Shown here: one piece after another, positions 10,378-33,493 of the stretch
How the letters are laid out: each line of letters begins with the position of its first letter
Position numbering within the stretch: position 1 is the stretch's first letter
Source: an uncultured Pseudomonadales bacterium
Lineage (GTDB): Bacteria; Patescibacteriota; Microgenomatia; UBA1400; UBA1449
Assembly (NCBI GenBank): GCA_964386355.1
Contig: CAYLQQ010000003.1
Coordinates: 5,880-69,879, forward strand
Reading direction: 5' to 3'
Length of the DNA: 64,000 bases
Program-made: the position numbers and the translations under genes
The notes under the pieces: model-generated
What the model was told of the DNA's origin: nothing
Seen by the model: the letters and a program-made list of their open reading frames with translations, nothing else
Database searches by the model: none

Positions 10378-10497
10378 TTCCGGTCTCGGCTTATTTTCAC
10401 AAAAGCTTGTGCTATCACTATCGTCAGCGCTGGAGCGTTTCAAGACTCTGTTCGGAATGGGAAGAGTTGGTACCACCCCGCTTCAGAAACCGGAACA
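10378..10497 (-). rRNA. rrf: 5S rRNA
   Basis: Reverse complement contains CCCATTCCGAACAGAGTCTTGAAACGCTCCAGCGCTGACGATAGTG, matching the 5S consensus CCCATGCCGAACTCAGAAGTGAAACGCCGTAGCGCCGATGGTAGTG. Helix I pairing between the termini (UGUUCCGGU / ACCGGAAC). Confidence 0.75.
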
Positions 10498-11823: not shown

Positions 11824-11969
11824 CTGTCTCACGACGCTCTGAACCCAGCTCACGTAGCGTTTTAATGGGCGAACAGACCAACCCTTGGGACCTTCTACAG
11901 CCCCAGGATACGCTGAGCCGACATCGTGGTGCCAAACCGCGCCGTCGCTGTGGACGCTTGGGCGCGATC

Positions 11970-12000
<31 letters not shown>

Positions 12001-14609
12001 ATAAGCTCCGTGTGTTCCATGCCACAACGGAGGATCACTATGACCGACTTTCGTCCCTGCTCCACTTGTAAGTGTCACAGTCAAGCATGCTTCATGCCAT
12101 TATACATACACTGCGATTTCCATCCGCAGCAAGCATACCTTTGTACGTTTGCGGTACAATTTAGCAAACCAGCGCCCCACTGAAACTGCCCATCAAACAC
12201 TGTCCCTTTTGCGGTTAGCAAATAGGTGAGAATTATTTAATTCCAAGAGCGGTATTCCACTGACCGATTCCGATAAATCGGAACCGTCCCGCCTATTCTC
12301 GACAATAAAACTAAATAATTCAATGCCAGACTGCAGTAAAGCTCCACGGGGTCTTTTTGTCCAGGTGTATGTAGGCCGCATCTTCACAGCCATTGCAATC
12401 TTCGCCGAGTCGATGGTCAAGACAGTTCTCAAGTCATTACACCTTTCGTGCGCGTCGGAACTTACCCGACAAGGTACTTCGCTACCATAGAACAGTTATA
12501 GTTACTGCTGCCGTTCACCGGGGCTTCGATGAGAAGCAAGATGGACCTTACGGCCCAACCACTCCCGCACTTAACCTTCCGGCACTGGGCAGGCCTCAGC
12601 CCGTATACATCAGCTTTCGCTTTAGCACAGACCTGTGTTTTTGTTAAACAGTTGCTTGAGATTCGTTTGTTGCAGCCCCTATTGCTAGAGGCAGGACATC
12701 TACCGAAGGTACGTCCAGCTAATTTGCCTAGTTCCTTAACCATCGTTCTCTCGCTCGTCTTGGTCTACTCGACCTTCCCACCTGTGTCGGTTTTAGTACG
12801 GATAGAAAACGTACGTTTTAGAGGTTTTTCTTGGAAATATAAAAGTTCAAGGTTAATCCCGACAAGTCGGGACTTCCCCATACAGCTCGTGTAAACGCCA
12901 TGGCGGATTTACCTACCACGACTGCCTCGCTGTCCGGACCGCAATTCAATAAGCGGCCTTGGCTCTCACGTTTCGTCACCCCATCAACATAGTACGTCTC
13001 CCAGTACAGGAATATTAACCTGTTGTCCATCAGCTACGCCAATTGGCCTCGCCTTAGGGCCGACTCACCCGTTCTCGACGACCGTTGGAACGGAAACCTT
13101 GGGATTTCGACGGAAAAGATTCTCACTTTTCTTTCGCTACTCATACTAGCATTCTCACTTGATGCCGCTCCAGCCAGCCTTACAGCCAACCTTCACTGCT
13201 GACATCAACGCTCCCCTACCACTCCTCATCTTGCGATAAGAAATCTCTAATTTCGGTATACTGCTTAACTCTCGTGAAATTTTCGGTGCCTTCCATCCAA
13301 ATCGACTAGTAAGCTGTTACGCTATTTTTAAAGGATGGCTGCTTCTAAGCCGACCTCCTAGCTGTTTAAGATGAAAAACTCCCTTCCTGTATTAACAGTA
13401 ATTTTGAGACCTTAATTGAGAGTCTGGGATGTTTCCCTTTTGCCCATGGAGCTTAGCCCCCACAGACTAACTCTTTATAGTTGTCATCGGTATTCGGAGT
13501 TTGGTTGAGTACCAGGCCACAAGGACCAAGCACCCATCCAGTAGCTCTACCTCCAATGACACAAGATTAAAAGGCTATGCCTAAACATATTTCGGGGAGA
13601 ACCAGCTATCTCCAGGTACGATAAGTATTTTGCTCCGACCCACAAGTCATCCAAAAAGTTTTCAGCCTTAACTGGTGCGGGCCTCCCTCCGATATTACTC
13701 GAAGTTCACCCTGCTCATGGGTAGCTCACCTGGTTTCGGGTCTGCCACATACTGCTGATTCGGGCTATTCACCCTCGCTTTCACTACGCCTTCCCCTTAT
13801 AAAGGGTTAGACTTGCAATATATGAGCAACTCGCTAGTTCATTCTTCAATAGGCACGCGATCATCCCGATTTGCATCGGGACTCTCACTGTTTGTTAGCA
13901 GACAATTTCAGGTTCTATTTCACTGGGTCTCTCACCCTTCTTTTCACCTTTCCCTCACGGTACTTGTACGCTATCGGTAGTTTCAAGTATTTAGCCTTAC
14001 CCCATGGTCGGGGTAGATTCCTCCCGAAGTTTACCGTCTTCTGGAGTACTCAGGATACTTCTAGGGTCATCTCGTCTTTAAAATACAGGGCTGTCACCTT
14101 CTATGGCTCGCCGTTCCAGGCTATTCTTCTAGATTTGATAATCCCATATTGAAGTCCTACAACCTCCTGCATAAATGCAGAATTTGGGCTGTTTCCTATT
14201 CGCTCGTCGCTACTAAGGAAATCTCATTCGATTTATATTCCTCTGGTTACTTAGATATTTCAGTTCACCAGGTTACCATCATCAATCACAAGGATTGACG
14301 ATCATCCCACTTGCGTAGGATGGGGTTTCCCCATTCGGAGACCACCGGGTTATAGGTTGTTGGTACCTAACCGGTGCGTTTCGCCACCAACCGCGTCCTT
14401 CTTCGGCTTGAAACTCCAAGGCATCTGTTGTCTGCTTGAGTAAAAGAAATTGTTCATGAATCTTTTCAAAGCGTTATATGAACGATTGCATATACATACA
14501 TATATACACTTTACTTCTATTCACTTTTTAAAGAACCAAATTGTGCTGTTTCACAGCTTCAGGACAAGTCCGTTCGACTCACCCTGTTCTGAGAACCAAC
14601 AGTATTTAG

Positions 14610-14682
14610 TGGACCTGAGGAGGCTCGAACTCCTTGCCTCTACATTGCAAATGTAGCGCTCTACCAGGTGAGCTACAGGCCC
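14610..14682 (-). tRNA. tRNA-Ala (anticodon UGC)
   Basis: RC = GGGCCTGTAGCTCACCTGGTAGAGCGCTACATTTGCAATGTAGAGGCAAGGAGTTCGAGCCTCCTCAGGTCCA. Full cloverleaf, anticodon loop TTTGCAA, G3:U70 Ala identity pair. Confidence 0.9.
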
Positions 14683-14900
14683 AAAGTTCAAACCATTCCT
14701 AAGCACTTCATAAGGCTAAAAAGAGCTATTAACTAAAAAAGTCTCCCTGAGGAGACTTTGAAACAAACCACTAATACACAGTTTTACCTTATGAAAAATT
14801 TCTGTGTATAAAAATGGATGTCTTTATTCAAAATCATTTTCCTCATGAAATAACTGCCTTTTATGGCAAATGGTATTTTAACAGAGACTTACCTCCCGCG

Positions 14901-15200
14901 TCAAATGGTATTTATAGTTGATGCGAAGATAATTAATACCACTCCTAATAACAACTCAATACCCAATATAACAAATGATGCTTGATTTAACCATTTAGCT
15001 GTTGTGGGGTATATCTTTTTTAGGGAGTAATAGTATATTGCACCCGCCAATACAGGAGAGAATATCATCGTCACTATTGCCCATGCTTTCTGTCCGCGAT
15101 TTAGCACTCCGTTTTGCTTTTTTATTTTTGATAAAAGGAAAAAAGCAGATAAAGTAAAAAATAGACCAATAGTGCGGATTAAAACACTATAATCTTCCAT
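14901..15200 (-). CDS. Small membrane protein, hypothetical (2-3 TM)
   Basis: Track ORF 14901-15230 begins with a TTG that abuts the tRNA-like sequence. The first ATG (15198-15200, MEDYSVLIRT...) is the more plausible start. The protein is hydrophobic. Confidence 0.4.
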   Translation of the reverse strand: MEDYSVLIRTIGLFFTLSAFFLLSKIKKQNGVLNRGQKAWAIVTMIFSPVLAGAIYYYSLKKIYPTTAKWLNQASFVILGIELLLGVVLIIFASTINTI

Positions 15201-15230
15201 GCTGATTATTTTGAAGTAATATTTTGACAA

Positions 15231-15308
15231 TGGGTGACCATGGTTTGTAAACCAAGTACCCCAAGGCTTACCAAACCGCAGTGCTCTACCAATTGAACCG
15301 CTCTGTCA
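15231..15308 (-). pseudogene. Degenerate tRNA-like sequence (partial duplicate of the adjacent tRNA-Ile; acceptor and T-arm do not fold canonically)
   Basis: Shares tgggtgaccatggttt...gctctaccaattga with tRNA-Ile 20 nt away. The 5' acceptor strand (TGACAGAG) cannot pair with the 3' GGTCACCC, and the T-loop is mutated (CTTGGTTTACAAACCATG). Confidence 0.3.
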
Positions 15309-15326
15309 ATCAAGACTATTATTAAG

Positions 15327-15399
15327 TGGGTGACCATGGTTTCGAACCATGTACCTCAGTCTTATCAGGACTGCGCTCTACCAATTGAGCTAGTCACCC
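15327..15399 (-). tRNA. tRNA-Ile (anticodon GAU)
   Basis: RC = GGGTGACTAGCTCAATTGGTAGAGCGCAGTCCTGATAAGACTGAGGTACATGGTTCGAAACCATGGTCACCCA. Canonical cloverleaf, anticodon loop CTGATAA. Confidence 0.9.
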
Positions 15400-15785
15400 A
15401 TAAATACATTTTGTTATATAACAAAGAGCGTCTTTATTATCCTAGTTTTTCTTACCTTTACAATTGATACTTAACTCTTTGAGTTAAGTACGTCCTCACA
15501 GTCCAGGCTATTCACCCAACACAACCACGTATTTTACCAAATTTCCCATCATTTTGTATTCACAAGTTTTAAGGCCTATACACTCTTTTAAATACATAAG
15601 AGTATTTTTCTTTAGACAGGTAAATCAGAGATGCCTTAATGTTTATGTAAGTTTGATAAGAAATTGATATATCTGTTCTTTTAACAATCTAACTATCCGT
15701 ATTCTCTTTTTCATCCTCTTTTCATACTCTTGGGTTAAAGTAATACATATACTATTACATTATTTATATAAGTTAGGAGAACAGT

Positions 15786-16388
15786 ATGCCATTTACCATT
15801 GACCCCCTTCCATACTCATCAGATGCACTAGAGCCCTTTATTGATAAAGAAACTATGCTCCTACATCACGACAAACACCACCAAACATATGCTGATAAAC
15901 TAAATTTAGCTTTGGAAAAATACCCTAAATTATATGAACAGTCACTGGAAAGTCTACTTTCTAATCTGGAAACGGTTCCAACTGATATCCGCACGTCTGT
16001 GAAAAACCATGGTGGTGGCGTTCACAACCACAACCTGTTTTGGAAGATGCTTGCACCAAAGCAGGAAGCAAGCGAAACAATCAAACAAGCTTTGTCTCAA
16101 TCATTTGGAAGTTTTGAGCAGTTTAAAGATCAGTTTGCCCAATCGGCTTTAAACCATTTTGGAAGCGGGTGGGCTTGGCTTGTCAAAGATACCGCTGGAA
16201 AACTTAAAATCTATTCACTTCCCAATCAAGACAGTCCTCTAAGCCAAGGTGATATACCCATTTTGGCTTTGGATGTCTGGGAACATGCCTACTATCTAAA
16301 ATATCAAAATAGAAGAGTTGAATATATCCAAACTTGGTGGAACGTAGTAAATTGGATTACTGTTGAGATAAGACTTAGGGAAGGATAA
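15786..16388 (+). CDS. sodA: Fe/Mn superoxide dismutase
   Basis: 200 aa. LPYSSDALEPFIDKETMLLHHDKHHQTY and DVWEHAYYLKYQNRR are signature SOD_Fe motifs. Lies between 16S and 23S on the opposite strand. Confidence 0.9.
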   Translation: MPFTIDPLPYSSDALEPFIDKETMLLHHDKHHQTYADKLNLALEKYPKLYEQSLESLLSNLETVPTDIRTSVKNHGGGVHNHNLFWKMLAPKQEASETIKQALSQSFGSFEQFKDQFAQSALNHFGSGWAWLVKDTAGKLKIYSLPNQDSPLSQGDIPILALDVWEHAYYLKYQNRRVEYIQTWWNVVNWITVEIRLREG

Positions 16389-16414
16389 AATCATGTCTGA
16401 GCTGGTTCTAAATC

Positions 16415-16744
16415 CTACAGATCGCTAATCCAGGGTGGATCATCATCATAACCAATCAGCTGCCCATTTTTTAAAACCCAATTAGTATCCCCTTTCGGGC
16501 CATAGATAAGCCTTCCGTCTTCATTGTCTAACTTACTATCCTCATCAAGAATGTAATAGCCGGTATATCCATTGGGGCCATAAATGTATTTCTCATCTTT
16601 AATATATGTATTGGTATACCCCTTACCAGCTCCATAAATATAACTTCCACGGATTGTATAATCATCATTCGCCATTAGGGTAACGTAGTTCATAATAAAG
16701 ATAAATAGGTAAACATATATTAAGAAAACCAACAAAAAAACCAC
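16415..16744 (-). CDS. Small Tyr/Gly-repeat protein, hypothetical (start uncertain; an internal ATG is more likely than the listed start)
   Basis: Repeated YIYGxxGYT / YGPxG motifs. The listed start overlaps a terminator hairpin, so the true start is probably MANDDY... or MNYV.... Confidence 0.35.
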   Translation of the reverse strand: MVFLLVFLIYVYLFIFIMNYVTLMANDDYTIRGSYIYGAGKGYTNTYIKDEKYIYGPNGYTGYYILDEDSKLDNEDGRLIYGPKGDTNWVLKNGQLIGYDDDPPWISDL

Positions 16745-16763
16745 CCTTATGAGGTGGTTTTTT
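16734..16763. terminator. Bidirectional terminator hairpin (ccacc-cttatga-ggtgg) flanked by an A-run and a T-run
   Basis: aaaaaaa CCACC cttatga GGTGG tttttt, downstream of 16S on the minus strand. Confidence 0.5.
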
Positions 16764-16856
16764 AATTTGAAATACCCAAGACGTGGAAGAAAACTATTTC
16801 CGCTGATTTCTAGAGTTTGATTCTAGATATTTTTTCTACGCATTACTTTGTAGAGG

Positions 16857-16877
16857 AAAAACCCCGCGTGAGTGGGG
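16857..16877 (-). terminator. Terminator-like hairpin immediately 3' of 16S rRNA (CCCCACUCACGCGGGG + UUUUU on the minus strand)
   Basis: Seen 15 nt after the 16S 3' end. Could also be a processing stem. Confidence 0.4.
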
Positions 16878-16887
16878 AAACCAAACT

Positions 16888-18421
<1,534 letters not shown>

Positions 18422-21310: not shown

Positions 21311-22609
21311 CTAATAGTTCTCTACCCTACTCGGGTCAACCATAAAGTCCTGAAGATATTTTCGACCAATGAGAATTTCAGAACGCAAATGCTTTCGGTT
21401 TGAAATATTGGCCAAAGCCCGCACTTTTTGTCCTTGAATCCATAAATCTACCTCTATAACTGGACGGACTTCCTTTCCGAGAGCTGACTTGAATGTTTCC
21501 TCATATAAAATGTTTTTAGTACCCAAGAGCCCCAAATCCTCAGCTAATGTTCTATCAATGCTGACTGAGTAAGCTCCTGTATCCATCTTAGCAATAATCT
21601 CATGCTTGTTACTCTGCCCGTCCTTGATTATTATTTTTTCAAAAATGCCCACAATCTTTCTGCCTTTCTCAGTTTTAACTTTGTCTGAAAAATGTTCAGC
21701 AAAAAGCACTTGAGCTATTTGAATCCCTTTGTTGGGGTCTTGAATATCCAGTTCTTCAATGCGTTTAAGCCTAGCTAAAAGCCCCGCCTGATTAGCCATT
21801 TGGATCTGAAGTCCTGGTTGATCATTGAGCTCAATAACTAACGGACCTTTTTCTTCATCGATAACAATATCCACTCCTATATAGCCCAATTTTGTTGCTT
21901 GTTGACAAGCTACTGCAATCTTGAGTATCTGCTCCCAATACGGAATTACTAGGCCGTTTACTTTCTTACTTGTATTGGGAATATGGCTAATTATCGAGTC
22001 GTAATGTACTCCATGTGTTGTAATACCAGTAGCCATATCAATTCCGAGGGCTACCGCCCCTTGGTGAATATTTGCTTTACCATTACTCTCCTTGGTAGGT
22101 AAACGCAACATAGCCATAACCGGAACACTGTTAAAAACGATCACCCGAACATCGGGCGTGCCTTGGTAGGCATACTTTCGAAATTTGGGGTGTATTTTTA
22201 CCCGTTGTTCTATAAATGCTTGGTCAGGTGTTCTATTTCTTGAATATGAACCTTCGACTATATCCATAGCATGAAGTTGCAGATCTTCCTCATTCACTGT
22301 TCCCCCGTTCATTAGCAGCCACCTTCCTTCCTGTTCAGTTACCTTCTTAATTACCAGAATACCCTCACCCCCATACCCTTCACTAGGCTTAACAACAAAG
22401 CCTTCTTTTAATGCAATCCAGTTGAATGACCGTATATCACTATAGGAACGCAGCACTTTGATGAGCTTAGGATGAGGTATAGAGTTCCGTTTCAGGATTT
22501 TCTTAGTTAAAAGTTTAGAGTCCGCTATCTTACGAGCACTGTGGGAATTGAGTCCGAGATAGTTAAGATTTCGGGCATTCATGCCCAAAATATGATGCAG
22601 TTTGGCCAT
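21311..22609 (-). CDS. RimK-related ATP-grasp (alpha-L-glutamate ligase-like) fused to a C-terminal retropepsin-like/DUF785 'ATP-dependent zinc protease'-type domain
   Basis: N-terminal ATP-grasp motifs (VVKPSEGYGGEGILV, IELNDQPG). C-terminal IIAKMDTGAYSVSID...VRALANISNR resembles the retropepsin-like DUF785 domain. Confidence 0.6.
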   Translation of the reverse strand: MAKLHHILGMNARNLNYLGLNSHSARKIADSKLLTKKILKRNSIPHPKLIKVLRSYSDIRSFNWIALKEGFVVKPSEGYGGEGILVIKKVTEQEGRWLLMNGGTVNEEDLQLHAMDIVEGSYSRNRTPDQAFIEQRVKIHPKFRKYAYQGTPDVRVIVFNSVPVMAMLRLPTKESNGKANIHQGAVALGIDMATGITTHGVHYDSIISHIPNTSKKVNGLVIPYWEQILKIAVACQQATKLGYIGVDIVIDEEKGPLVIELNDQPGLQIQMANQAGLLARLKRIEELDIQDPNKGIQIAQVLFAEHFSDKVKTEKGRKIVGIFEKIIIKDGQSNKHEIIAKMDTGAYSVSIDRTLAEDLGLLGTKNILYEETFKSALGKEVRPVIEVDLWIQGQKVRALANISNRKHLRSEILIGRKYLQDFMVDPSRVENY

Positions 22610-22611
22610 AC

Positions 22612-23520
22612 TTATTTCAGTAGTTTTCTAAACCGCCATATTTCTAGAAGTCTCAATCCAGAATATTGCTCAATGAGCAATATCGATCCAAGAACAATAA
22701 CTATAAAAAGCTCGGGATTAACCAAAACAAACTTCTGAAGTATTTCTAAATTCATAATATAAAAACAAGCTATCGCTAGGATAAGAGTTTCTCCGGTAAT
22801 AATGAGCGCTTGAGTAAGATTTCGTGTAATCTGCAAATCTAAGAAATCCTCAACAAGTAATATAAGAATAAGGAGTGGAAAAATACCAATTGTAATCAGA
22901 GAGGTATTCCCTATAGCTGGTGATATTAATAGTATACTAAATATACTCAATGATACTAAAAGCATAAATAGAGCCATCCTTGGTAAATACTGAAATCGTA
23001 TTTTTTTGAGTAACATACGTACCATAGTAGCTACTGCAAGTATAAACGCAAATAACCCTATTCCTGTAACAAGTCCAGTCGCTAAAAATGCCACAGACAA
23101 TAGAGCTGGTGTAAATATTCCTGAGCTTTTGAGACCAATTATATGGCGAGCAAACACAACTACCGTTGCTACCAAAGGAAATAACATAATAAGTACTATT
23201 GTATTTGCTGGAACTCCCTGAGAGACAGCATACCGGATAGCATGTTGTACAACCGTAAACAAACTCATCTCTCCTACCGGATTCTGGTCGATATATCGTT
23301 CTAGTTTACCTTTTACCTCTGGTTTTGGTTCTGTGATATCAGGCTCCCGTTCAATGACTTTTCTGACAACTGGGCTGGCTGACTGGCTAGCTTCTGCAGA
23401 CTCTGAGGCCTCGATAGTTGACTGAGGACTAATGTTTGGCTCTTGTGCCCGAATACTCTGCCCAGGAAGCATGATTAGCGTGATTAATAATAGTAGTATT
23501 AAAGATATTTTTATATTCAT
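22612..23520 (-). CDS. Signal-peptide plus polytopic (about 7 TM) membrane protein, probable partner of the ATP-grasp/protease gene
   Basis: 302 aa with an N-terminal signal sequence, then an acidic/Ser-rich linker and seven hydrophobic helices. 2-nt gap to the downstream gene. Confidence 0.5.
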   Translation of the reverse strand: MNIKISLILLLLITLIMLPGQSIRAQEPNISPQSTIEASESAEASQSASPVVRKVIEREPDITEPKPEVKGKLERYIDQNPVGEMSLFTVVQHAIRYAVSQGVPANTIVLIMLFPLVATVVVFARHIIGLKSSGIFTPALLSVAFLATGLVTGIGLFAFILAVATMVRMLLKKIRFQYLPRMALFMLLVSLSIFSILLISPAIGNTSLITIGIFPLLILILLVEDFLDLQITRNLTQALIITGETLILAIACFYIMNLEILQKFVLVNPELFIVIVLGSILLIEQYSGLRLLEIWRFRKLLK

Positions 23521-25936
23521 ACCGTGTATTATACCATTATATACAATTTGTACTGATTTTGTTCAATTTACTAATAATACTTTTTTTACTCATTTTATTA
23601 TTGTTATATCCTTTTGTTATGTACTTTTATCATTTCTTTTTATTTAATATATATTTCCCCATGTTTTTATTCGTTTAAGTATATTTTAACTGTTTTGTAA
23701 GTTTTCCACATTATGTGGATCTTTTTATATTATTCTGTCATTCTGTTCTTGTTTTTGCTAGCTAACTTATTATTTGATTTGCTAGCATATGTTTATACTA
23801 TATATATTTTTTCACTACTTATGATTTTTGTTTCACCATATTACGTATTTACTGCAACTAATGCGTTACATTATTAGTTTTACTTGTGTCATTTATTCTG
23901 GTGACATTATACTCTGCTAATATTATTTATTCTTACTGGTGATGTTTTTAGTCACTGATTTAATATATTAGTCATCAGTTGCAATATACGTATCAATCAC
24001 TATATATAGATGAAGCTTCCAAATTATCAGTTTTAAGATCGCTGTAATACAAATAAGATGCTAAATTGAGATAAAGGACTTTTTAAAATGCTACAGATAT
24101 TACTTAATAAAATCCATGTGTCTAGAAATGAGTTATTACCGATGTTGAAATCTATAATAACAAGTCGTTGATTGAGAGAGCTGATTATTTATTAGGCCAT
24201 CACTATAAGTGGAACAATATTGAGCAGTGATTAACTGATGAAGGGTATATATCGTAGTGGTATCGGCTCTATACATGCACACACCAACTCTAAGTAGCTT
24301 AGACCATAAGTTATTAGTTTAACTCGTTTCTGTTATTACTATTTCTATATAGCTATATTAAGGATTACAATCTAGATGAAGCTCGGTATATGTAAATGTA
24401 TATTACACTTTTTATAAACCTAAGTTAAAATAGACATGATGCGTTTTAATTGGACATATTTTAACATTTACTCACTACTATCGACAATCACTGCACTGCT
24501 GACGAATATCTGCACTTTAACACTTATCAATCATGATTTGTAAATAAACAGAATTAACTTTATTCTAACTCCAATGTTTGATTTAAAACCATACATTTTC
24601 TAATAAAAAGTAATTTACTGTAATTTTTATAGCTATTATTATATGAGGTATAATCTTTCTGAGCTTCTACAAGGCATCCTATTGTACTAGCCACACATTT
24701 ATTCATTAAATTACATTATATTTAACCTACGCTGAGCTAGTATATATACTAACATTGGCTCTTTTTTTAGTAATTAATTACTTTTACTCTAATAACTAAA
24801 ATTATGCTCTAATATTTATAATTATTTTTATAATTTGTATTTTTCCGAATTATTCTGCGTTTAATGCATGCAATGTTTATATACCTTTCACATAACCGCT
24901 CTATATATTACTTATTACATTTTTTCTTTCCTATTTTTTACTTATATCTCATTTTTCATTAATATTGTTTATTTTTTATGTTCTTCTATTTGTTATCACT
25001 CTTTTTTCTTTACTGCTATTTTCGTTTGAATTTCATCTTTTTTTATATATATCTTTATTAGAATCTTTTACCGCATTCTTACTTTTTACTTATAATATTT
25101 ATTACTAATTTTCTCTAATTAAGTAATTTATTTTTTGCATATTATAATCTGATATTTGTTTTCAGTCTTTATATCTAATGTTATTGAAGTTTTATCTGTT
25201 AATTCTCTAATGATTTATTCTATCTACTACTACAGTTAGCTTCTATTTGATAATTTAGCAAACTTTATGTTTATTTGCTTATCCTTACCTATTCTATTTT
25301 TTACTTATATTATGGTATTTTTATATATTTATTACTTAATACTTATTACTTTATCTAATAAACGTTATTTATACAAATCATTTTTAATACTATTTTAGTT
25401 TTCTATTTATCTTAATAACAACTTTGTCTAAATATATTATTACTTTTACAAGTCTTTTTTGTATTTCCTAATCTGTTATTTTTATTCTCATACTATTTTA
25501 TTCTTTATTACTTCGTTTTATACCATAGTTAATAACAATAATATCCTATTCACTAGTTATATTACAGTTATATTTACTTATATTATTTGCCATATAATGT
25601 TTTTGTCCTTTAGTATTAATAACGCTATCATTATTAATATTATTTTATTTATTAAATATATAATTATATAACGCATAATTAATATATATTTAATTATTAT
25701 TTATACACTATAATGGTATTATATACATCAACAAAAATAGTTATAAGGGCAAAGAAAAATATTAGGTTAATAATACTAATATAATATACGAAGTATAAAC
25801 CGAATATGGTAATTAGAGGAAAAAGATTAAGTAATTATATATATATGTAACAATATATAACAACTAAAGTATTATTGACATCTCAACCTTCTAATCATAT
25901 ATTGTAATCGTATAATAACCTTACATATGTAAACTT
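23521..25936. other. 2.4-kb ORF-free, extremely AT-rich (roughly 80-85% A+T) intergenic block
   Basis: No ORF >60 aa apart from a low-complexity artefact at 25459-25671. Recurring TTATTACTT-like words. A palindrome ccacattatgtggat lies at 23707-23722. Confidence 0.8.
25875..25916 (+). promoter_or_regulatory. Sigma-70-like promoter for the giant gene: TTGACA-17nt-TATATT, plus a perfect TATAAT 8 nt further downstream
   Basis: ttgaca (25875-80), 17-nt spacer, tatatt (25898-903). tataat at 25911-16. ATG at 25937. Confidence 0.4.
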
Positions 25937-28900
25937 ATGCACACCGTGCAAGAACCTCAAGATACTAACCTACTATCAATTTCTCAAGCAGCACAATTCC
26001 TCGGAATATCCGAAGATACATTACGGAGATGGGATAAATTGGGTAAGCTAGTTCCAAACAGGACTCTTGGTAACTCTAGAAGGTATGAATTAAGTATCTT
26101 GCAACAAATTAAAGAAAGTAAAGATGGTTTCGAAACGCAAAATAACTATTTTCAAATAAGAAAAGAATTACAGAATATAAGAGATATATTACAGAATAAT
26201 AAGAAAAATGTAACTAAATTAAACCTAAGCAATCCTTCAGATACAGCGCTAATTAAGATACAAGCAAAGAATATAGAAGGATTACCTCAAACGATAGTTA
26301 TGGATAAGAAAGATACTAATCAAGTTACAAAACATAACATAATAAAACTTAATAGTATAAAAGATAACATTATTCATAAACTTACTTTACGAACAGGCAT
26401 AGATCTTATTGCAATAGCTTTATCCTTTGGGATAGTTATTCTTCTACTTATTTTAATATATACAGCTGTTACAAAAGGCTTACACAAAATTGAAAAGAAT
26501 CTAAGCAATGCTCAACAATTCAATCAAGACATTTTACTTGAACAAGATAGTTCGCAACCACTACTAGGAAGTGGACTGATTATTGGTGAAGATAAAGTAC
26601 TTATTGACGAACGTGGAAATATCCAACTTAGCGGAGCAGTATCCGGAGGTTATATCGATTCAGATAGTCGTAACTTTATAACAAATTCAGGCTTTGAGCA
26701 AAATGCATCAGGAAAGGCTTTATACTATATTTATGCTGAGGATGCCTCAGAAGCCAATACTTTTGTAACACAAGATTCTAGTTTAGATGGTCAAAATGCC
26801 CTTAAAGTAATTTTAGAACCAAATAACATGATCAAGATTCAACCCACATATGCTGACCTATTTCCAGGAAAAACCTATACTTTTTCACTCTATGTAAAAG
26901 GGTTGGGCACTACTGATGCAGATCTTACTGTCGGCTATGGAACTACCATGAGGAGTTATACAATAGCTGGTGACAGTTCGTGGCAACTAATTTCAGTCTC
27001 AAAACATTTTGAACCAGAAGAAAGTCCTACCCTTGATTCATTTAGTATTCTAATACAAAGTCGAGATGGTGTTGGCACTTTATATGTTGATAATATTCAG
27101 CTTGAAGGTGGTTCAACAGTCACTGCTTATAAACCTTCACATCTTACAACTGACGGAATCATCCATTTTTCTGCAGATGCCCTATTTCCTGCTGTAGCTG
27201 ACACAGTATCGATTGGTACAATAGTAAAACCATTTCAAGAAATAGTGGTAAATGAACAGATTATTAACAACTCATTGGAAGTATACGGTGACGCCACTAT
27301 AGATGGTAATCTAGTCGTTAGTGGTGACATTGAATTCCCTACTGTAATAGCCAAGGATAAGATTATTATCCAAACTGACGGTTTATATACTGGTAGTGGT
27401 ATCGGCACCAAGCGACTTGACAGTAACGGAAATCTACAAAATATTACTAGCCTGGGATTAGTCTATGGTACACTGACTTCTACAACTGATTATCTCACCT
27501 CTTCTGTCGGATTATCTGTTGGTGGGAATGCTTCATACTATTTTAATAAAAATGGCTATATAAAAGCTGCTCAGCTGAATTCATTGTCTGACATAAAAAT
27601 TGGTGATCCTAATGGAGAAACAGATAGTCTTGGAATATATTTTAGTGGTGTCAGTGGACACAGCAATGAGGCAGGCATGAGATTTAATACCAGTTCCGGC
27701 AAACTTGAGTATAGGGATGATAATAACACTAGCTGGACTACATTCGACAGCTTATCAGAGAGTAGCAGTACTACTGATTACAGTGCTAGCAATGGCTTGA
27801 CAATGGATGGAACAGATATCTTACTGGGCGGTAGCTTTACCCAGGACACTACTACCGTACTGGGAGCATATGACCTCATCTACAACCTGAATAGCACGGG
27901 TGATATAGAGATCCAGGACAATGGTTCTGCCCTGCTATACATCAGTGATACCGGCAATATCGGCATAGGCACCAATAGCCCTGCTGCCAAGCTGGATGTA
28001 GCGTCCTATGCCAACTTCGGCTCTTCCGTTAATATTGCCTCTACCCTGACCACAGTAGCCCTAAAAATAAGTGGTGGCGCTCATGATGGGTATGTCCTGA
28101 CTTCTGATGCTAACGGTAATACGGTTTGGGAAGCTGTTAGTTCGGGAGCTACGTATACGGCTGGAAATGGACTTACGCTGGCCTCCTCTACATTTACTCT
28201 TGGTGGAACATTAACGGAATCTACCGCCATCAACCAAGATAGTTTTGGGTTTACATTAGAAAACCCGGGAACTGCAGATACGATAATTAACTTAGGCTCT
28301 GAGGGTGACCTGCTTATACAGGACAACGGGACCACTTTTGCTACTTTTGCTGATAACGGTTCGTTTACTTTGGAAAATATTACCTTTGATAATACTCAGC
28401 TAACCGCGGCTGGTGACTTAGGTCTTGGACTCTATGACAATGCTAGCAATGGTATTTTTGTTAAAGATGGAGGTAACGTTGGTATTGGCACCACAACTCC
28501 CGGATCTCAACTGACAGTCAATGGCGTAGGATCCTTTACCCTTGGCACTGTTGCCTTGCCTGGAATCACCTTTGGCACTGACACCAATACTGGTATGTGG
28601 TCGTCAGACCCTGATACGGTCAACTTATCTACAAATGGATTAGAAAGGTTAAGAGTTGATAGTAATGGGAATGTAGGAATTGGAACCACAAGCCCGACAG
28701 AGAATCTACATGTGATTGGAAATGCTATCTTTCCTCAGGGCAGCATTGGGGTTGGTGCTCATTGGACCGCTAAAGACCCTTCCGGTAGATCATTACTATA
28801 TATTAGAGATGATACTGATCAACCTAAGTTAGTAGTCGAACAAGATAATATAAATAATAGTGCGGCTATTTTTTACGGACAAGGTACATCAAACGACGTG

Positions 28901-31900
28901 AGCATTGCTGAGTTTTGGGGTAATAATGGTTCAACTTATGGTTTGTATGTTCAAAATTCTGGAAATGTTGGAATTGGCGACAACAGTCCGGCTGCACTCT
29001 TCAGCGTTGGTTTTGGTGACTTGTTTACCATCAATAATCTAGGAAACCTCAATGGAATATCCGGGAATTTCTCTGGTTCATTGACTATAGGTGAAAACTT
29101 TTCTGCTACTTCCGGCTCCTATACTTTGGATAACATAACTTTCGATGATGCGCAGATCACTGCAGCTGGTGATCTAGGATTGGGGATATATGATAATTCT
29201 GGAAATGGTTTAACTATTGGTGATGGTGGAAATATTGGTATTGGCACCACCTCTCCCTTTCAAAAAATGCACCTAGTAAATGGAAGTATGCTGATAGATT
29301 CACCCAATCCTAGTCTAGTAGGTAACTTTATTACAGGCGGAAGTGCTTTTGGTGTGTATGTGTCGGGTAAGTATGCATATGTAGCAGACTATACTGAAGG
29401 ATTGAAGATAATGGATATAAGTAACCCGAATTCCCCGGTATTAGTATCATCCTATGATACTAATGCTCTTACAACAGAAGTTGTTGTTGCTGGGAAGTAT
29501 GCTTACCTTGCAGATGGATTAACTGGCGGGGTAAAAATAGTAGATGTAAGTAATCCAAAATCTCCAACACTTATAGGCACATATAACCCTGTTGATAGTG
29601 GTGGTATTAAAAATATATATCTTACTGGTAAATACATATATGCAACAGATTGGTTTTTAGGTTTACTTATAATTGATGTTAGCAACCCGGCCTCACCAAT
29701 ACTTGTAGGTTCATATGCTTCTATGGATGCCCACGGTGTGTATGTGTCGGGTAAATATGCATATGTAGCAAACGGTTTAGATGGTTTGCAAGTGATTGAT
29801 GTAAGCAACCCTACCTCCCCTTCTTTAGCTGGTACGTATGACACTAGTGGGGATGCTTTGGGTGTGTATGTGTCGGGTAAATATGCATATGTAGCAAACG
29901 GTTTAGATGGTTTGCAAGTGATTGATGTAAGCAACCCTACCTCCCCTTCTTTAGCTGGTACGTATGACACTAGTGGGGATGCGTTGGGTGTGTATGTGTC
30001 GGGTAAATATGCATATATAGCAGATGGTTCGTATGGGTTGCAGGTGATTGATGTAAGCAACCCGGCTACACCTTCCTTAGCTGGTATGTATAGAACTATT
30101 CATAATGCCATGAAGATTTATGTGTCGGGTAAATATGCATATGTTGGCAATGCATTAAGTGGTTTGCAGGTTATCGATGTGGGGGGAGCTGATATTCATG
30201 CATTAAATGCTGGGAATGTTGAAACGAATAGTATTACAATTACTGATAATGGGGACATTGGTAATAACTTATACATAAGAAATGGAATCAATGTTGGTAC
30301 AGGCGGATTATTTACTGATGGTCTAATTTCTTCAGCAGGTTCAGGTATTAACTACTTTGCAGGCAACGTTGGAATCGGCGTTTTAGCACCGGCTGAGAAA
30401 ATGGAGGTAGCTGGTAATATTCGAGTCACAGGTGGCTCTTTTATCGATGACGGTACTACACTAGCTGTTCCTGATTACGTTTTTGAAAGCGATTATAACC
30501 TGATGAACCTAACCGACCTTGGATCCTACATAGAATTGAATAAGCATCTGCCGGGCGTACCTGACATGAACGATACCAAGGGCTGGGCAGCGCTTTCATT
30601 GCAGGACAGGGATATGAAGCTTCTGGAAAAAATCGAAGAGAATATTATATATACCCTTGAGCTAAACTCAAAACTCGCTGATACCAGATTGGAGCTAAGC
30701 AATTCTAACCATGCAACCATGTATCCCTCCAACCAGGAGTTTCTCTCAAGTTCCGGGGATCTCTTTATCCAGTCCCAGATATACGACGGAATCCTCGGGG
30801 AAGCTACACCTGACACTCTTGCAAACCTCACCTCAACCGTTACAGATAGCTTAGGTAATGCCAAAGTGGCTGTAGCGGGTTTTGGCAGCGTATTTAGTGC
30901 CAAACTAACAGTCGGCATAGCTGATATCAAAAACCTGATTACTGATACCGTGGTAGTCAGGCAGGTAAAAGTTGAAGACAAGCTCCTTTCCCCCGTTGTT
31001 GAAGCAAGCCAGATCCTGACTGACCAGCTCTACACTCAAAATCTGACAGCTGTGGATGCTTCCATTTCTGGCACCTTATCAGCTAGACAAGCTGTGTTTG
31101 GTGATCCAGCAATGAAACAATCCAGCAATGAAACAATTGCTGTTCAGATTCTCGGTGATGCCTCAGTGTCTGGAACTCTCAAGACAAAAGATGCCAGTGT
31201 CAGTGGAGAGCTCTTTGCCAACTCAGCCCGCATCAGGACACTTATAGCTGAAAGGATCAAAGCTGATTCCATTGAAGGTTTGGAAGCCAGGATTGAAAAT
31301 ATAGTCAATTCCTCTATGTCAGCCCAAATGATGGAGTTGTATACACTAAACACCCCATACCCCTCTCCCGTTGCAGTTACCAACAACTTACCCTCCCTTC
31401 CCTCTGACTGGGAGCAGAGCCTAAACAATCTCATGACTAGGCTCGACAATGTGGAGTCAGCCACTAGCTCTGCTACCTGGCAAGCCAACTCAAACCTGGC
31501 TTACGACTCCCAAATCATAGCGGGTACAGTGGATACGGATTTGGCTACGGTCAATACTTTCCTGGCAGTTCTAGGAAATGCTTCTATGGTCAATGCTGAA
31601 GTGACCAATAGCCTCAGTGTCCAAACTGACCTGAATCTTACTAGAAATTCTATAGCTACCCTTTCCGATACTCTCTACATCCAGCCCACCGGCCTAGGTA
31701 AGATAGATATCCTAGCCGGTGCTATATCTGTAGAAAGTAATGGAAATCTATATGTTAACGGAGACCTATACTTAAAGGGGTCTTTATATGCTTATAGGTT
31801 ATTTTCTGATACATTAGAAACGAAAACCGCCACTGTATCCGGAACCTTATTTACAAACTTAATCAAACCAAAAGACACTACAATAGCCATAGATCTTAGC

Positions 31901-32332
31901 TCTGTTAACCAAAACCTTAAAGCATCAGAGTCTGCCCTGCTCAGTTCCAAATTTCAGGTTCTAAATTCAGGTTCCGAAGTAGCTTCGATAGATGCCAGCG
32001 GTTCAGCCAGGTTTAAAGCGGTTACTGCATCTAAATTATATTTACCATATACCTATGATACTTTAGATAACCCTATAGATAGCTCTATATCAGCTGATGA
32101 GCTAAACAATACTGCCGATTCTATCGGGATTGGAACTATCAAAGCAGGACAAACAAGCATCTTTATGCAGGCTCCCATTGTGACCAAAGAGTCGCTCATG
32201 TTTGTAACTCCCACTACTACAACAAACATTCCCTTAGCTGTTACCGCTAAAGAGGTTGGCAAAGGGTTTATTGTTTCTATCACCAAACCCCAAACCACCA
32301 ACATAAACTTCAACTGGTGGATAATAAACTAA
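25937..32332 (+). CDS. Giant (2131 aa) membrane-anchored surface protein with an N-terminal cytoplasmic HTH fused to a single TM helix and a huge ectodomain
   Basis: Residues ~12-60 (LLSISQAAQFLGISEDTLRRWDKLGKLVPNRTLGNSRRYELSIL) match the HTH_17 excisionase/MerR-type consensus. TM helix LIAIALSFGIVILLLILIYTAV at ~155-178. CBM4/9-like jelly-roll domain (NFITNSGFEQNASGKALYY...). Tail-fibre-like beta-helical repeats (GNVGIGTTTP). LVIVD-type beta-propeller repeats (YAYVA..GLQVIDVSNP). Tail-fibre chaperone (Peptidase_S74)-like segment DYVFESDYNLMNLTDLGSYIELNKHLPGV. Confidence 0.85.
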   Translation: MHTVQEPQDTNLLSISQAAQFLGISEDTLRRWDKLGKLVPNRTLGNSRRYELSILQQIKESKDGFETQNNYFQIRKELQNIRDILQNNKKNVTKLNLSNPSDTALIKIQAKNIEGLPQTIVMDKKDTNQVTKHNIIKLNSIKDNIIHKLTLRTGIDLIAIALSFGIVILLLILIYTAVTKGLHKIEKNLSNAQQFNQDILLEQDSSQPLLGSGLIIGEDKVLIDERGNIQLSGAVSGGYIDSDSRNFITNSGFEQNASGKALYYIYAEDASEANTFVTQDSSLDGQNALKVILEPNNMIKIQPTYADLFPGKTYTFSLYVKGLGTTDADLTVGYGTTMRSYTIAGDSSWQLISVSKHFEPEESPTLDSFSILIQSRDGVGTLYVDNIQLEGGSTVTAYKPSHLTTDGIIHFSADALFPAVADTVSIGTIVKPFQEIVVNEQIINNSLEVYGDATIDGNLVVSGDIEFPTVIAKDKIIIQTDGLYTGSGIGTKRLDSNGNLQNITSLGLVYGTLTSTTDYLTSSVGLSVGGNASYYFNKNGYIKAAQLNSLSDIKIGDPNGETDSLGIYFSGVSGHSNEAGMRFNTSSGKLEYRDDNNTSWTTFDSLSESSSTTDYSASNGLTMDGTDILLGGSFTQDTTTVLGAYDLIYNLNSTGDIEIQDNGSALLYISDTGNIGIGTNSPAAKLDVASYANFGSSVNIASTLTTVALKISGGAHDGYVLTSDANGNTVWEAVSSGATYTAGNGLTLASSTFTLGGTLTESTAINQDSFGFTLENPGTADTIINLGSEGDLLIQDNGTTFATFADNGSFTLENITFDNTQLTAAGDLGLGLYDNASNGIFVKDGGNVGIGTTTPGSQLTVNGVGSFTLGTVALPGITFGTDTNTGMWSSDPDTVNLSTNGLERLRVDSNGNVGIGTTSPTENLHVIGNAIFPQGSIGVGAHWTAKDPSGRSLLYIRDDTDQPKLVVEQDNINNSAAIFYGQGTSNDVSIAEFWGNNGSTYGLYVQNSGNVGIGDNSPAALFSVGFGDLFTINNLGNLNGISGNFSGSLTIGENFSATSGSYTLDNITFDDAQITAAGDLGLGIYDNSGNGLTIGDGGNIGIGTTSPFQKMHLVNGSMLIDSPNPSLVGNFITGGSAFGVYVSGKYAYVADYTEGLKIMDISNPNSPVLVSSYDTNALTTEVVVAGKYAYLADGLTGGVKIVDVSNPKSPTLIGTYNPVDSGGIKNIYLTGKYIYATDWFLGLLIIDVSNPASPILVGSYASMDAHGVYVSGKYAYVANGLDGLQVIDVSNPTSPSLAGTYDTSGDALGVYVSGKYAYVANGLDGLQVIDVSNPTSPSLAGTYDTSGDALGVYVSGKYAYIADGSYGLQVIDVSNPATPSLAGMYRTIHNAMKIYVSGKYAYVGNALSGLQVIDVGGADIHALNAGNVETNSITITDNGDIGNNLYIRNGINVGTGGLFTDGLISSAGSGINYFAGNVGIGVLAPAEKMEVAGNIRVTGGSFIDDGTTLAVPDYVFESDYNLMNLTDLGSYIELNKHLPGVPDMNDTKGWAALSLQDRDMKLLEKIEENIIYTLELNSKLADTRLELSNSNHATMYPSNQEFLSSSGDLFIQSQIYDGILGEATPDTLANLTSTVTDSLGNAKVAVAGFGSVFSAKLTVGIADIKNLITDTVVVRQVKVEDKLLSPVVEASQILTDQLYTQNLTAVDASISGTLSARQAVFGDPAMKQSSNETIAVQILGDASVSGTLKTKDASVSGELFANSARIRTLIAERIKADSIEGLEARIENIVNSSMSAQMMELYTLNTPYPSPVAVTNNLPSLPSDWEQSLNNLMTRLDNVESATSSATWQANSNLAYDSQIIAGTVDTDLATVNTFLAVLGNASMVNAEVTNSLSVQTDLNLTRNSIATLSDTLYIQPTGLGKIDILAGAISVESNGNLYVNGDLYLKGSLYAYRLFSDTLETKTATVSGTLFTNLIKPKDTTIAIDLSSVNQNLKASESALLSSKFQVLNSGSEVASIDASGSARFKAVTASKLYLPYTYDTLDNPIDSSISADELNNTADSIGIGTIKAGQTSIFMQAPIVTKESLMFVTPTTTTNIPLAVTAKEVGKGFIVSITKPQTTNINFNWWIIN
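29735..30112 (+). repeat. Tandem 126-bp (42-aa) repeats inside the giant gene, two copies differing by 1 nt
   Basis: Copies start at 29735, 29861 and 29987 (ggtgtgtatgtgtcgggtaaatatgcatat...). Copies 1 and 2 differ only at gctttg/gcgttg. Further diverged copies lie at ~29347 and ~30118. Confidence 0.85.
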
Positions 32333-32555
32333 AGATGTTTTTGTCATCACCCTTCATGGTCTTTGCTACTGAAAAGTTCTAATAATGATTAAGTTTAGGT
32401 AGTGGTGGAAAACACATGTTAAAAGTATCATGGCAATCATATCGTAAGATGTTTTACCCAATATTCACAAATCTACATTCTAAGCCAAATCAACTTCCTA
32501 CCCTCTTCATCCCACTTAGTGGGACGAAGTCACGGAAGATGAAAATTCTCCCAAA

Positions 32556-32585
32556 TTAAAAACCCCGCCTTAACAGCGGGGTTTA
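32556..32585. terminator. Bidirectional rho-independent terminator between the convergent giant gene and ferredoxin gene
   Basis: aaaaa CCCCGC cttaaca GCGGGG ttt. Confidence 0.7.
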
Positions 32586-32608
32586 AATTCAAGCTAATGG
32601 TCTAACCT

Positions 32609-32842
32609 TTAGACAGTCGGAGCAGAAGTAGTGGTGGCATCTTGAACGATTTCCTCCCAGGAAATAGCTGCTACCGGACAGGCATCAATTGCTCCCTGAA
32701 TCTCCGATTCACTGTGTCCATTAGGATCTGTTATGTGTGATTTGCCATCATCACCCATCGCAAATGTTTTGGGACACAAAGACACGCAGGTGCCGCAACC
32801 AATACATATATTTGGATCTACTTTTGGTTTTTTAGTTGCCAT
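32609..32842 (-). CDS. 4Fe-4S ferredoxin
   Basis: 77 aa with CIGCGTCVSLCP and a second Cys cluster motif CP. Confidence 0.75.
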   Translation of the reverse strand: MATKKPKVDPNICIGCGTCVSLCPKTFAMGDDGKSHITDPNGHSESEIQGAIDACPVAAISWEEIVQDATTTSAPTV

Positions 32843-33493
32843 ATAATTTTTACTTAAACTTTATTACCTACTATTTGTACCATATCTATGCTGGTTTACA
32901 AACCGGCAGTTTTCAAATTCGCTACCTTTTAGCGGGTAAATTTATATGGAAAAATAGTGATGCTAACTGAGGTAAAAGAAATGATAGCCCCTCATACACT
33001 CACTATCTTTGCCAACCAACATCTATCATAATCAAAATCAGAATAAATTGGATTGAAAATGATTTTGTAACATATTAAATACCGGGGGTTTATGCTGAGT
33101 TCCCTTACTTTACACAAAATTATACTAGATATATCTGGCGCTCTTCTTGGGTATCTGATTACTTTACGCACTATTTCCCTATCGTTCAACACCAATACTT
33201 GCTAATGCAAATTATAATTAAAATTATTAAAAAAATGTTAAATTCCCAGATGAACGTGTAAATATTAAAAAAATAAATAGTAAACACATATTGTATGTTT
33301 AATAGTTTTAAGTCTTGTTTTGATTATAATGTTTTATTATTTTGAGTTATTAAAAATATTTCGATGAGGTCTTCTGTTTACCCGGATGCTTTATTTGCAA
33401 TCATAAAGAGGATATATACAAAGGAGATTAATAATCAAAATATTGAACATTTATGTTCTTTATTGAAACTGTTCCACTATTTGAGGGTAATTA

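Follow-up and report, generated by a model that had tools for sequence, protein, structure and literature searches.

The closest described counterparts of a long gene-free stretch in a compact bacterial genome are the junk spacers and pseudogene relics reportedly found in reduced genomes such as those of Rickettsia, Mycobacterium leprae, and insect endosymbionts. Three other kinds of locus invite comparison, namely the low-GC targets of H-NS/Lsr2/Rok-type proteins, the divergent gene pairs of MerR-family regulators, and bacterial replication origins (oriC). Here we describe a gene-free tract of 2416 bp at positions 23521–25936 of a 64,000-nucleotide stretch of contig CAYLQQ010000003.1, the whole of which was analyzed and is called the window. 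The tract is bounded on the left by the start codon of a 7TM membrane protein gene (22612–23520, minus strand), which heads a 7TM/ATP-grasp operon, and on the right by the ATG of a gene for a 2131-residue protein (25937–32332, plus strand), referred to as the giant gene. Within the Patescibacteria, the tract is conserved across a clade of family rank, and it is neither an assembly artefact nor a recent pseudogene, because equivalents recur across related lineages, including lineages without the giant gene. The explanation that we favor, at about an even chance of being correct, is that it is an ancient relic spacer, vertically inherited, with an unconstrained body and functional ends.

Results

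Distribution of the tract among relatives

On its rRNA operon, flanking proteins, and best relatives, the window belongs to a bacterium of the Patescibacteria (Microgenomates/Beckwithbacteria-like), the named matches being metagenome-assembled genomes of the Patescibacteria group and Candidatus Beckwithbacteria. A contig of the Logan assembly SRR11845627 matches the window without a single difference over 11,378 bp, the whole tract included; its sample may share the window's source. Loci from relatives, designated below by L numbers, were gathered from genome, metagenome, and read-assembly collections with the 7TM protein as anchor. Ahead of the 7TM/ATP-grasp operon, all lineages that combine 55–100% 7TM identity with a readable upstream region carry an open-reading-frame (ORF)-free tract, and its GC content is 18–29% in all of these except L029 (37%). 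The initial annotation of this DNA had allowed that related genomes might hold intact genes here, or that the tract might be an assembly artefact or collapsed repeat; instead, the equivalents are ORF-free, no member of the clade has intact genes spanning the tract, and counterparts are present in more than 10 other assemblies.

Nine tracts are complete, the window's included, and they measure 2.09–3.13 kb with 18–28% GC, apart from the one at 37%. The giant gene is the far-side neighbor of the tracts of the window (2416 bp), L025 (2270 bp), L005 (2113 bp), and L003 (3128 bp), and in L033, the lineage with 55% 7TM identity, the tract of 3108 bp is followed by a giant-gene orthologue that is 34% identical over the first 500 residues. 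The giant gene is absent at this spot in four of the eight other complete lineages. In three of them, L024 (2092 bp), L029 (2432 bp), and L031 (2949 bp), the far-side neighbor is a ferredoxin gene and the genes are all co-directional, and in L028 the tract (2663 bp) lies between the ferredoxin gene and an inserted pair encoding a glycosyltransferase and a Wzx-like flippase, so that the two inserted genes separate the tract from the 7TM gene. Two further tracts, in L026 and L027, are partial, cut by contig ends with no less than 1.3 and 1.8 kb of tract, respectively. The four lineages with 16S sequence are 83–91% identical in that gene, which by the usual thresholds would make them separate genera within roughly one family.

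In the more distant relatives examined (7TM identity of 52% or less), the operon lies in another context. Four of these (L010, L011, L012, and L015; 47–52% identity) have a gene for a DsbA-like thioredoxin directly upstream of the 7TM gene, co-directional and with no tract, which suggests that the DsbA-like/7TM arrangement is an older operon layout that was lost by the tract-bearing clade.

Two observations on these loci are recorded in their own right. The contigs of L002, L006, L007, L008, L026, L027, L030, and L032 break off within the tract or no more than about 150 bp from it, and such breaks could come from low coverage of AT-rich DNA or from strain-level variation. The L029 tract contains a segment of about 400 nt (L029:4670–5080) with 41–60% GC and a GC skew of up to +0.68 (G over C), for which there was no Rfam match and in which the sole ORF is a proline-rich antisense frame that is apparently spurious; no other part of any tract is like it.

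Composition and coding content

The tract has a GC content of 23.0%, compared to 40.4% for the remaining window, and on the plus strand it consists of 31.5% A, 13.5% C, 9.6% G, and 45.4% T. An AT content of about 80–85% had been ascribed to the whole tract; this value is reached only at about 24,900–25,720, and the overall figure is 77%. The tract is by far the largest gap of the window, nothing else there resembles it, and the rest of the window has a high coding density. The initial statement that spacers elsewhere are shorter than 400 bp is slightly too strong, as there are gaps of 591 and 651 bp as well as one of 1161 bp (32333–33493), which contains a gene for a 77-residue ferredoxin.

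The absence of any credible ORF from 23521–25936, as initially annotated, was borne out. The longest ORF of the tract encodes 71 residues and overlaps the end of the 7TM gene, the longest stop-free run is 79 codons compared to 84 ± 16 in local shuffles, and ORF lengths are at the level of shuffled sequence in all 11 tracts compared. Three-nucleotide periodicity is absent from the tract (z of 1.2, compared to 24 in the giant gene), and dropping any one or two stop codons, as in alternative genetic codes, opens no frame in the tract beyond chance. An all-against-all search of 660 stop-free segments from the 11 tracts found no conserved small ORF. Hidden small proteins or precursor peptides for the ATP-grasp enzymes were considered and rejected, as nothing was conserved among these segments and tblastx returned only low-complexity noise. 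No relic of a DsbA-like gene was found in the tract by tblastn or by profile search of six-frame translations, nor was any relic of the giant gene or of a glutamate dehydrogenase (GDH) gene, and across all 11 lineages no recognizable gene remnant was seen, the relics sought being DsbA-like, giant-gene, and GDH sequences in addition to small ORFs. On ORF content, periodicity, and these three relics, the tract does not behave as a coding gene or a recent pseudogene; the translated searches were aimed at these sequences, and no general protein-database translated search was made.

Evolution of the tract body

Between the conserved ends described below lies a body of about 2 kb (23830–25860) with no detectable constraint. 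Its rate of change was measured in the one close pair available, L005 and L006, which are 92% identical over 6.4 kb. Over the whole tract (1023–2599), this pair is 88.4% identical, compared to 85.2% (436/512) at the four-fold degenerate sites of the flanking genes. In the body (1023–2399), A/T sites are 90.2% identical, exactly as are four-fold A/T sites, and the body overall is 87.8% identical where 85.9% is expected from four-fold rates. The body thus passes the test of an unconstrained spacer, with a neutral rate, taken from this pair, a neutral composition, and no functional signal. Comparison between genera shows saturation, the tracts of the window and L005 being 56% identical in global alignment compared to 50–52% in shuffled controls.

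Across 11 lineages, the GC content of the tract follows that of four-fold sites (r = 0.66) and averages 4 points lower. Mutation in bacteria is reportedly AT-biased, with synonymous sites held above the equilibrium, so a lower GC in the tract is in the direction expected. The 7TM-sense strand has more G than C in most tracts, as on the surrounding leading strand, although this is weak in L024, L026, and L027. The A/T asymmetry of the tracts flips between subclades, and strand asymmetry is flipped in L027, L028, L029, L031, and L033.

Small indels remove little of this DNA. L005 and L006 differ by six indel events totaling 14 bp, set beside 189 substitutions counted over the whole tract, a turnover of about 0.07 bp per substitution; if all were deletions, the half-life of the tract would be roughly nine substitutions per site, a figure from a small sample. 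At this turnover, no selection is needed for 2–3 kb to last through the divergence of the clade, provided that large deletions are rare.

A second spacer in the window bears on how such DNA can arise. The segment at 32843–33493 is ORF-free, 651 bp long, and 28% GC, and lies between the ferredoxin gene and a thioredoxin-reductase gene. It occupies the exact site of a gene for a 427-residue GDH in L024, L028, L029, and L031, and no GDH remnant is detectable in it. In this genome, then, a lost gene can leave AT-rich spacer DNA behind.

The left end and the 7TM/ATP-grasp operon

Conserved sequence is concentrated at the two ends of the tract. On the left, a conserved cis module that we call P3 (23685–23825, minus strand) was defined by alignment of seven sequences and lies about 170–300 bp upstream of the 7TM start. 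It is alignable in the window, L005, L006, L025, L024, L003, and L027, with nhmmer E-values of 1e-9 to 1e-29 in L005, L006, L025, L003, and L024. Its layout consists of direct repeats of (A/C)TAGCAA 24 nt apart (23779–23784 and 23755–23760), followed about 45 nt on by CACA-N3-TGTGGAAA. The paired TAGCAA pattern occurs in the window solely in P3 and is found at the equivalent place in L005, L024, L025, and L027, and TGTGGAAA, for which 0.01–0.08 occurrences are expected per strand, is nevertheless found in the sense orientation in six lineages. A stretch of 18 nt (23694–23711) is identical in L003. The module is conserved also in L024, which has no giant gene at the locus.

The isolated palindrome that had been noted in the tract, TCCACATTATGTGGA (TCCACAT-T-ATGTGGA), is present at 23705–23719, without strand, within box C of P3. 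Conservation across all lineages is limited to the half TTTTCCACA / TGTGGAAAA, and the full dyad is imperfect in L005 and absent in L003. The minus strand of P3 is the only locally stable spot of the tract (fold z of −4.3). The module was also tried as an RNA element and rejected as such, with a consensus energy of −0.7 kcal/mol, no compensatory pairs, and no conserved hairpin. Because the hairpin is not kept and no pair covaries, we read P3 as a DNA site rather than an RNA, probably a protein-binding regulatory site of the 7TM/ATP-grasp operon.

A core promoter of sigma-70-like type is predicted for the operon at 23536–23565 (minus strand; TGAACA-18-TATAAT) by consensus match only, with 10 of 12 positions matched. 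About 15 nt separate it from the downstream ATG at 23520, so the leader would be very short.

The gene served by this predicted promoter encodes a membrane protein of the 7TM_transglut family (22612–23520, minus strand; Pfam PF14402, 4e-31), which lacks the inactive transglutaminase domain of the Pfam family name. The ATP-grasp gene of the same operon (21311–22609, minus strand; PF14397, 5e-71) encodes an ATPgrasp_ST protein with a C-terminal retropepsin/Zn_protease-like (RimB-like) domain. The operons of L024, L026, L027, L030, and L032 hold one to four further RimK-like ATP-grasp genes that are absent in the window. In L005 (2597–2660) and L006 (1587–1621), a perfect palindrome of about 35 nt, ATATTTACTCTTTAT-ACTAA-ATAAAGAGTAAATAT, extended by GTATGAAT/ATTCATAC, adjoins the 7TM start upstream; it is absent from the window.

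The right end and the giant gene

The tract was said to end in a near-consensus promoter, and this was found at 25875–25903 (plus strand; TTGACA-17-TATATT) with 11 of 12 consensus matches. Its TATTGAC −35 block and TATAGT/TATATT −10 block align in L025, L003, and L033. Between the −10 element and the coding start, the alignment revealed a direct repeat, TATG(T/C)A-AACT-TATGCA (25926–25941, plus strand), which is nearly invariant as TATGCA-N4-TATGCA in the window, L025, L003, and the distant L033, overlapping the giant-gene ATG in the window and lying in the 5′ leader in L003 and L033. This repeat would be a candidate operator or leader element, possibly autoregulatory.

The initial placement of the tract between a 7TM/ATP-grasp operon and a giant gene anchored by a helix-turn-helix (HTH) agrees with the gene coordinates and Pfam matches. 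The 2131-residue product of the giant gene (25937–32332, plus strand) begins with a MerR-type HTH (residues 12–61; PF00376, 4.7e-10), followed by about 100 charged residues and a single predicted transmembrane helix (about 163–186). The remaining approximately 1,940 residues contain a CBM_4_9 domain and six LVIVD repeats, and are presumably extracellular. On these domain predictions, it would be a giant surface protein whose DNA-binding domain is tethered to the membrane. Orthologues sharing this N-terminus are found in L025, L003, L005, and L033, and the gene keeps its position and orientation from the 55% to the 100% lineage. A homology search with the N-terminal 240 residues gave no matches.

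Patches and repeated words in the interior

Two patches of the interior are shared with a single other lineage. Patch P1 (25650–25706, without strand) is 77% identical over 57 nt with L005 and, beyond the window, is shared only with the L002/L005/L006 lineage. Patch P2 (24966–25030, without strand), with a core TTGTTATCACTCTT at 24990–25003 followed by TGCTAT, is likewise common only to the window and that lineage, and has no predicted structure on either strand. As P1, P2, and P3 are colinear, the tracts of the window and L005 are homologous.

The recurring words described in the initial annotation are partly upheld. A T-rich word, TT(C/A)(C/T)TA(T/C)TTTTTACTTATA, has three copies at 24928, 25076, and 25291 (24928–25309, plus strand), near TTATTACTT words, and TTATTACTT itself occurs four times, all within 25329–25513. 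Both exceed dinucleotide shuffles, although they were chosen post hoc; TTATTACTT is confined to that one segment and the commonest 9-mer is no more frequent than in shuffles. The T-rich words were not seen conserved in other lineages, and we read them as local micro-duplication in drifting DNA. The tract contains 31 promoter-like sites, compared to 24.5 ± 5.2 in shuffles, which is no enrichment, and no motif was enriched in the body.

Tests for replication, RNA, mobile-element, and curvature signals

A replication origin or terminus had been proposed for the tract, and the proposal was not supported within the 64 kb covered by the skew and orientation tests. Cumulative GC skew declines equally, at about −0.12 per kb, up to 23 kb and beyond 31 kb, showing no ori or ter switch at the tract; the only local rise matches the plus-strand giant gene, with a local cumulative minimum near 26 kb. 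ORFs of at least 120 residues lie mostly on the minus strand on both sides, with no switch in orientation. Flanking genes in the relatives run in one direction, and the sign of the skews (G>C, T>A) is constant in L031 and changes only sporadically in L028. The DnaA-box pattern TTWTNCACA occurs nine times in the window where 8.9 are expected, and two of these touch the tract. With up to one mismatch, TTATCCACA-like DnaA-box words number one or two per tract in the window, L005, L006, and L003, and one such word, TTTTCCACA at 23702–23710, is conserved in several lineages. There was no parS site, and Pfam scans of 26 window ORFs found no dnaA, dnaN, or parAB, about 20 ORFs of at least 120 residues beyond 45.5 kb lying outside the scan. 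No dif site (the 28-bp XerCD site) was seen in a by-eye comparison with the consensus. The tract was rejected as oriC for want of a DnaA-box cluster, a skew or strand switch, and a dnaA/dnaN neighborhood, and as a terminus because neither a skew switch nor converging gene orientation was present.

The suggestion of a reservoir of small RNAs fared no better, and divergence in the tract is near neutral. Rfam gave no match for the window tract even at E ≤ 1, and nine related loci yielded none at the gathering score. There was no excess folding energy, the z-scores averaging −0.2 and −0.05 on the two strands (31 windows each) and none falling below −3.

The idea of a decayed prophage or island loses its specific part, since blastn against 50,697 phage and 72,556 plasmid records found no similarity, and the tract contains no tRNA, integrase, or conserved terminal repeats; its general part, that of old decayed DNA, fits best. 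An 18-nt inverted repeat at the edges (23524–23541 / 25709–25726) was considered as a pair of terminal repeats and set aside, as such pairs are abundant in AT-rich DNA and this one is unconserved in L005 and L003.

Curved DNA had also been suggested, and AA/TT phasing at 10–11 bp is absent from the window tract. Placement of G/C across the 11 tracts shows a weak spectral excess at periods of 9.4–11.2 bp (Fisher p of about 1e-4), absent at 6–8 bp; flanking coding DNA shows a comparable excess near 10 bp, so the signal cannot be taken as particular to the tracts.

The rRNA operon of the window

Elsewhere in the window, the rRNA operon (10378–18421, minus strand) is interrupted by protein genes. 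A gene for an Fe/Mn superoxide dismutase (15786–16388, opposite strand) lies between 16S and tRNA-Ile, and an ORF for a LAGLIDADG endonuclease (11086–11649) lies between 23S and 5S. The 23S match covers the whole model in only 2725 nt, compared to a model length of 2925.

Discussion

A persistent spacer with conserved ends

The tract has no coding or RNA signals, evolves at a neutral rate and with a neutral composition, and keeps its position and its ends. Its presence at 55–100% 7TM identity and the colinearity of P1–P3 indicate that it is old and vertically inherited. In the explanation introduced at the outset, an ancient relic spacer would have been inherited at one place on the chromosome, with the ferredoxin/thioredoxin gene block upstream of it and the 7TM/ATP-grasp operon downstream. 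Sequence-specific function would be confined to the left 300 bp, with the 7TM promoter and P3, and the right 100 bp, with the giant-gene promoter and the TATGCA-N4-TATGCA repeat, and these conserved end blocks are probably operator or promoter sites. The roughly 2 kb between them would drift at the neutral rate, having relaxed to an AT-rich composition under AT-biased mutation, and would survive since small indels remove DNA far too slowly. The body, we infer, is without function and began as a decayed gene or as acquired DNA. The initial proposal of a regulatory or silencing region for the giant gene is thereby narrowed, in that promoter- and operator-like blocks are indeed conserved at the edges, but the tract itself persists where the giant gene is missing.

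Several observations weigh against a relic spacer of this kind. The nine complete tracts all fall within 2.09–3.13 kb and none has been lost, which is tidier than pure drift suggests, and the tract has outlasted both the loss of the adjacent 6-kb giant gene (L024, L029, and L031) and gene gain beside it (L028). Bacteria are reportedly subject to a deletion bias, their pseudogenes are usually short-lived, and the dense coding elsewhere in the window argues that this genome is not generally tolerant of junk. The rate test comes from the single close pair L005/L006, and even there the G/C sites of the body are 77.9% identical compared to 68.1% for four-fold G/C sites, a difference of about two standard errors. 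Tract GC also lies 9–13 points under four-fold-site GC in the window, L025, and L026. Finally, the 7TM-sense strand in the window's subclade is A-rich, not T-rich (A 42–45%, G>C), and pure leading-strand mutation bias does not predict A-richness.

Alternative explanations

The alternative with the most to commend it, which we regard as possible while clearly on the less probable side, is that the body is selected for its length and AT-richness and not for its exact sequence, for example as a platform for coating or silencing by nucleoid proteins, as a meltable supercoil sink or insulator, or as a stretch held loosely at the envelope through the membrane-tethered HTH of the giant protein. The narrow range of 2.1–3.1 kb without loss in any readable lineage (16S 83–91% among four), the survival of the tract through giant-gene loss and through insertion of the glycosyltransferase/flippase pair, a tract GC below that of four-fold sites in the window's subclade, the weak G/C periodicity near 10 bp across tracts, and the divergently transcribed MerR-type HTH gene that adjoins it in five lineages are all consistent with such selection. 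Against it, the same periodicity is seen in flanking coding DNA, and AA/TT phasing in the window tract, enrichment of promoter-like sites, and any enriched body motif are lacking. In L028, moreover, the tract lies between convergent genes with nothing there to insulate or regulate, in L024, L029, and L031 it is present without the giant gene, and its rate and composition are those of unselected DNA. That the body is a selectively maintained element defined by position and composition, in which length and meltability matter, is a claim we make only tentatively and think rather improbable. An unlikely explanation is a hotspot at which foreign surface-related genes were repeatedly inserted and lost, leaving AT-rich cassette debris. 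The neighbors do vary, from the giant gene (window, L025, L005, L003, and L033) to the glycosyltransferase and flippase (L028) to nothing (L024, L029, and L031), the bodies have no detectable similarity between most lineages and flip in A/T skew, and many metagenome contigs break within the tract or at its edge. Loss of similarity is nonetheless expected at saturation, and low coverage of AT-rich DNA explains the contig breaks equally well; the giant gene is orthologous and stable in position and orientation from the 55% to the 100% lineage, colinear P1–P3 mark vertical inheritance between the window and L005, and no integrase, tRNA, direct or terminal repeats, or phage or plasmid similarity was found.

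It is less likely again that the tract is transcribed as a long, unstructured, and fast-evolving RNA, either as a leader of the 7TM or giant gene or as a free A/U-rich RNA such as a sponge. The purine-rich, mRNA-like 7TM-sense strand in the window's subclade would suit this, as would promoter-like sites on both strands, among them TTGCTA-18-TATATT at 23779–23808 with a TTGCTA −35 block conserved in L005, and the conservation of P2 without an obvious role. The strand asymmetry, however, flips in L027, L028, L029, L031, and L033, promoter-like matches are no more numerous than in shuffles, there is no structure signal or Rfam match and divergence is neutral, and strong predicted promoters adjoin both flanking genes, so that a long leader is unneeded. 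Hidden small genes for hydrophobic or ATP-grasp precursor peptides and an assembly artefact are, even taken together, very improbable. ATP-grasp ligases modify ribosomal peptides in some systems (graspetides), and the T-rich plus-strand ORFs of 39–71 residues would yield hydrophobic peptides, but these ORFs are at shuffle level with no conserved peptide, no periodicity, and neutral divergence; an artefact is contradicted by the Logan contig identical over 11,378 bp and by equivalents in more than 10 other assemblies. Least probable of all, to the point of being nearly negligible, is an origin or terminus of replication. An AT-rich and ORF-free character, one conserved DnaA-box-like word, and the local minimum of cumulative skew near 26 kb speak for it, and against it stand equal skew slopes, minus-strand ORFs on both sides, no enrichment of DnaA boxes, no parS, and no dnaA, dnaN, or parAB in the 26 scanned ORFs.

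Significance

If the body merely drifts, a large AT-rich gap in small genomes of this kind is not necessarily an origin, an RNA gene, or a gene that was overlooked, and its composition, at or below four-fold-site GC, would be a direct read-out of the mutational equilibrium. For bacteria, which are expected to discard DNA of no use, persistence at 2–3 kb throughout a clade of family rank is unusual, and the locus is thus a natural test of deletion bias in Patescibacteria. If length or meltability is selected instead, the tract would be a non-coding element of bacteria whose identity lies in its position and composition rather than in its sequence. In either case, the end modules are concrete candidate regulatory sites for two poorly understood systems, the 7TM/ATP-grasp peptide-ligase operon and the giant surface protein. 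Our literature search found nothing relevant on long non-coding regions or giant genes in this phylum.

Comparison with known systems

The features shared with a bacterial oriC are an AT-rich, non-coding sequence and one DnaA-box-like word, whereas a box cluster, a skew switch, and a dnaA/dnaN neighborhood are missing and the tract is about 5–10 times the typical length. The resemblance to MerR pairs such as mer, cue, and sox lies in a MerR-family HTH gene divergent from the 7TM/ATP-grasp operon and in the dyad TCCACAT-T-ATGTGGA upstream of that operon. Unlike in those pairs, the HTH is the N-terminus, and presumably the cytoplasmic tip, of a 2131-residue predicted membrane protein without a MerR effector domain, 2.4 kb separates regulator and target, and the dyad is unconserved and lies outside a 19–20-bp promoter spacer; no promoter with a long spacer was found around the P3 dyad. 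The tract is therefore not assigned to the MerR regulator/operator family.

With the targets of H-NS/Lsr2/Rok-type proteins and the so-called promoter islands, the tract shares a GC content far below that of the genome, a place between divergent surface-related genes, and many promoter-like words. It differs from them in that its promoter-like sites are at shuffle level, its A-tracts are not phased, horizontal acquisition is not visible, and it persists between co-directional or convergent genes. To our knowledge, no silencer protein is known from Patescibacteria, and no search aimed at one was made.

The junk spacers of reduced genomes come closest. Like them, the tract is long, AT-enriched, and ORF-free in a compact genome, with the rate and composition of unselected DNA, and the window has a second, shorter spacer at the site of a gene that relatives keep. 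It departs from the relics in those genomes in that none of the 11 lineages shows a recognizable remnant, no member of the clade has intact genes across it, and it has been kept at 2–3 kb over family-level divergence, where relics are usually traceable for much less. Set beside these systems, the tract is an ordinary kind of thing, a drifting spacer with functional ends, that is unusually persistent.

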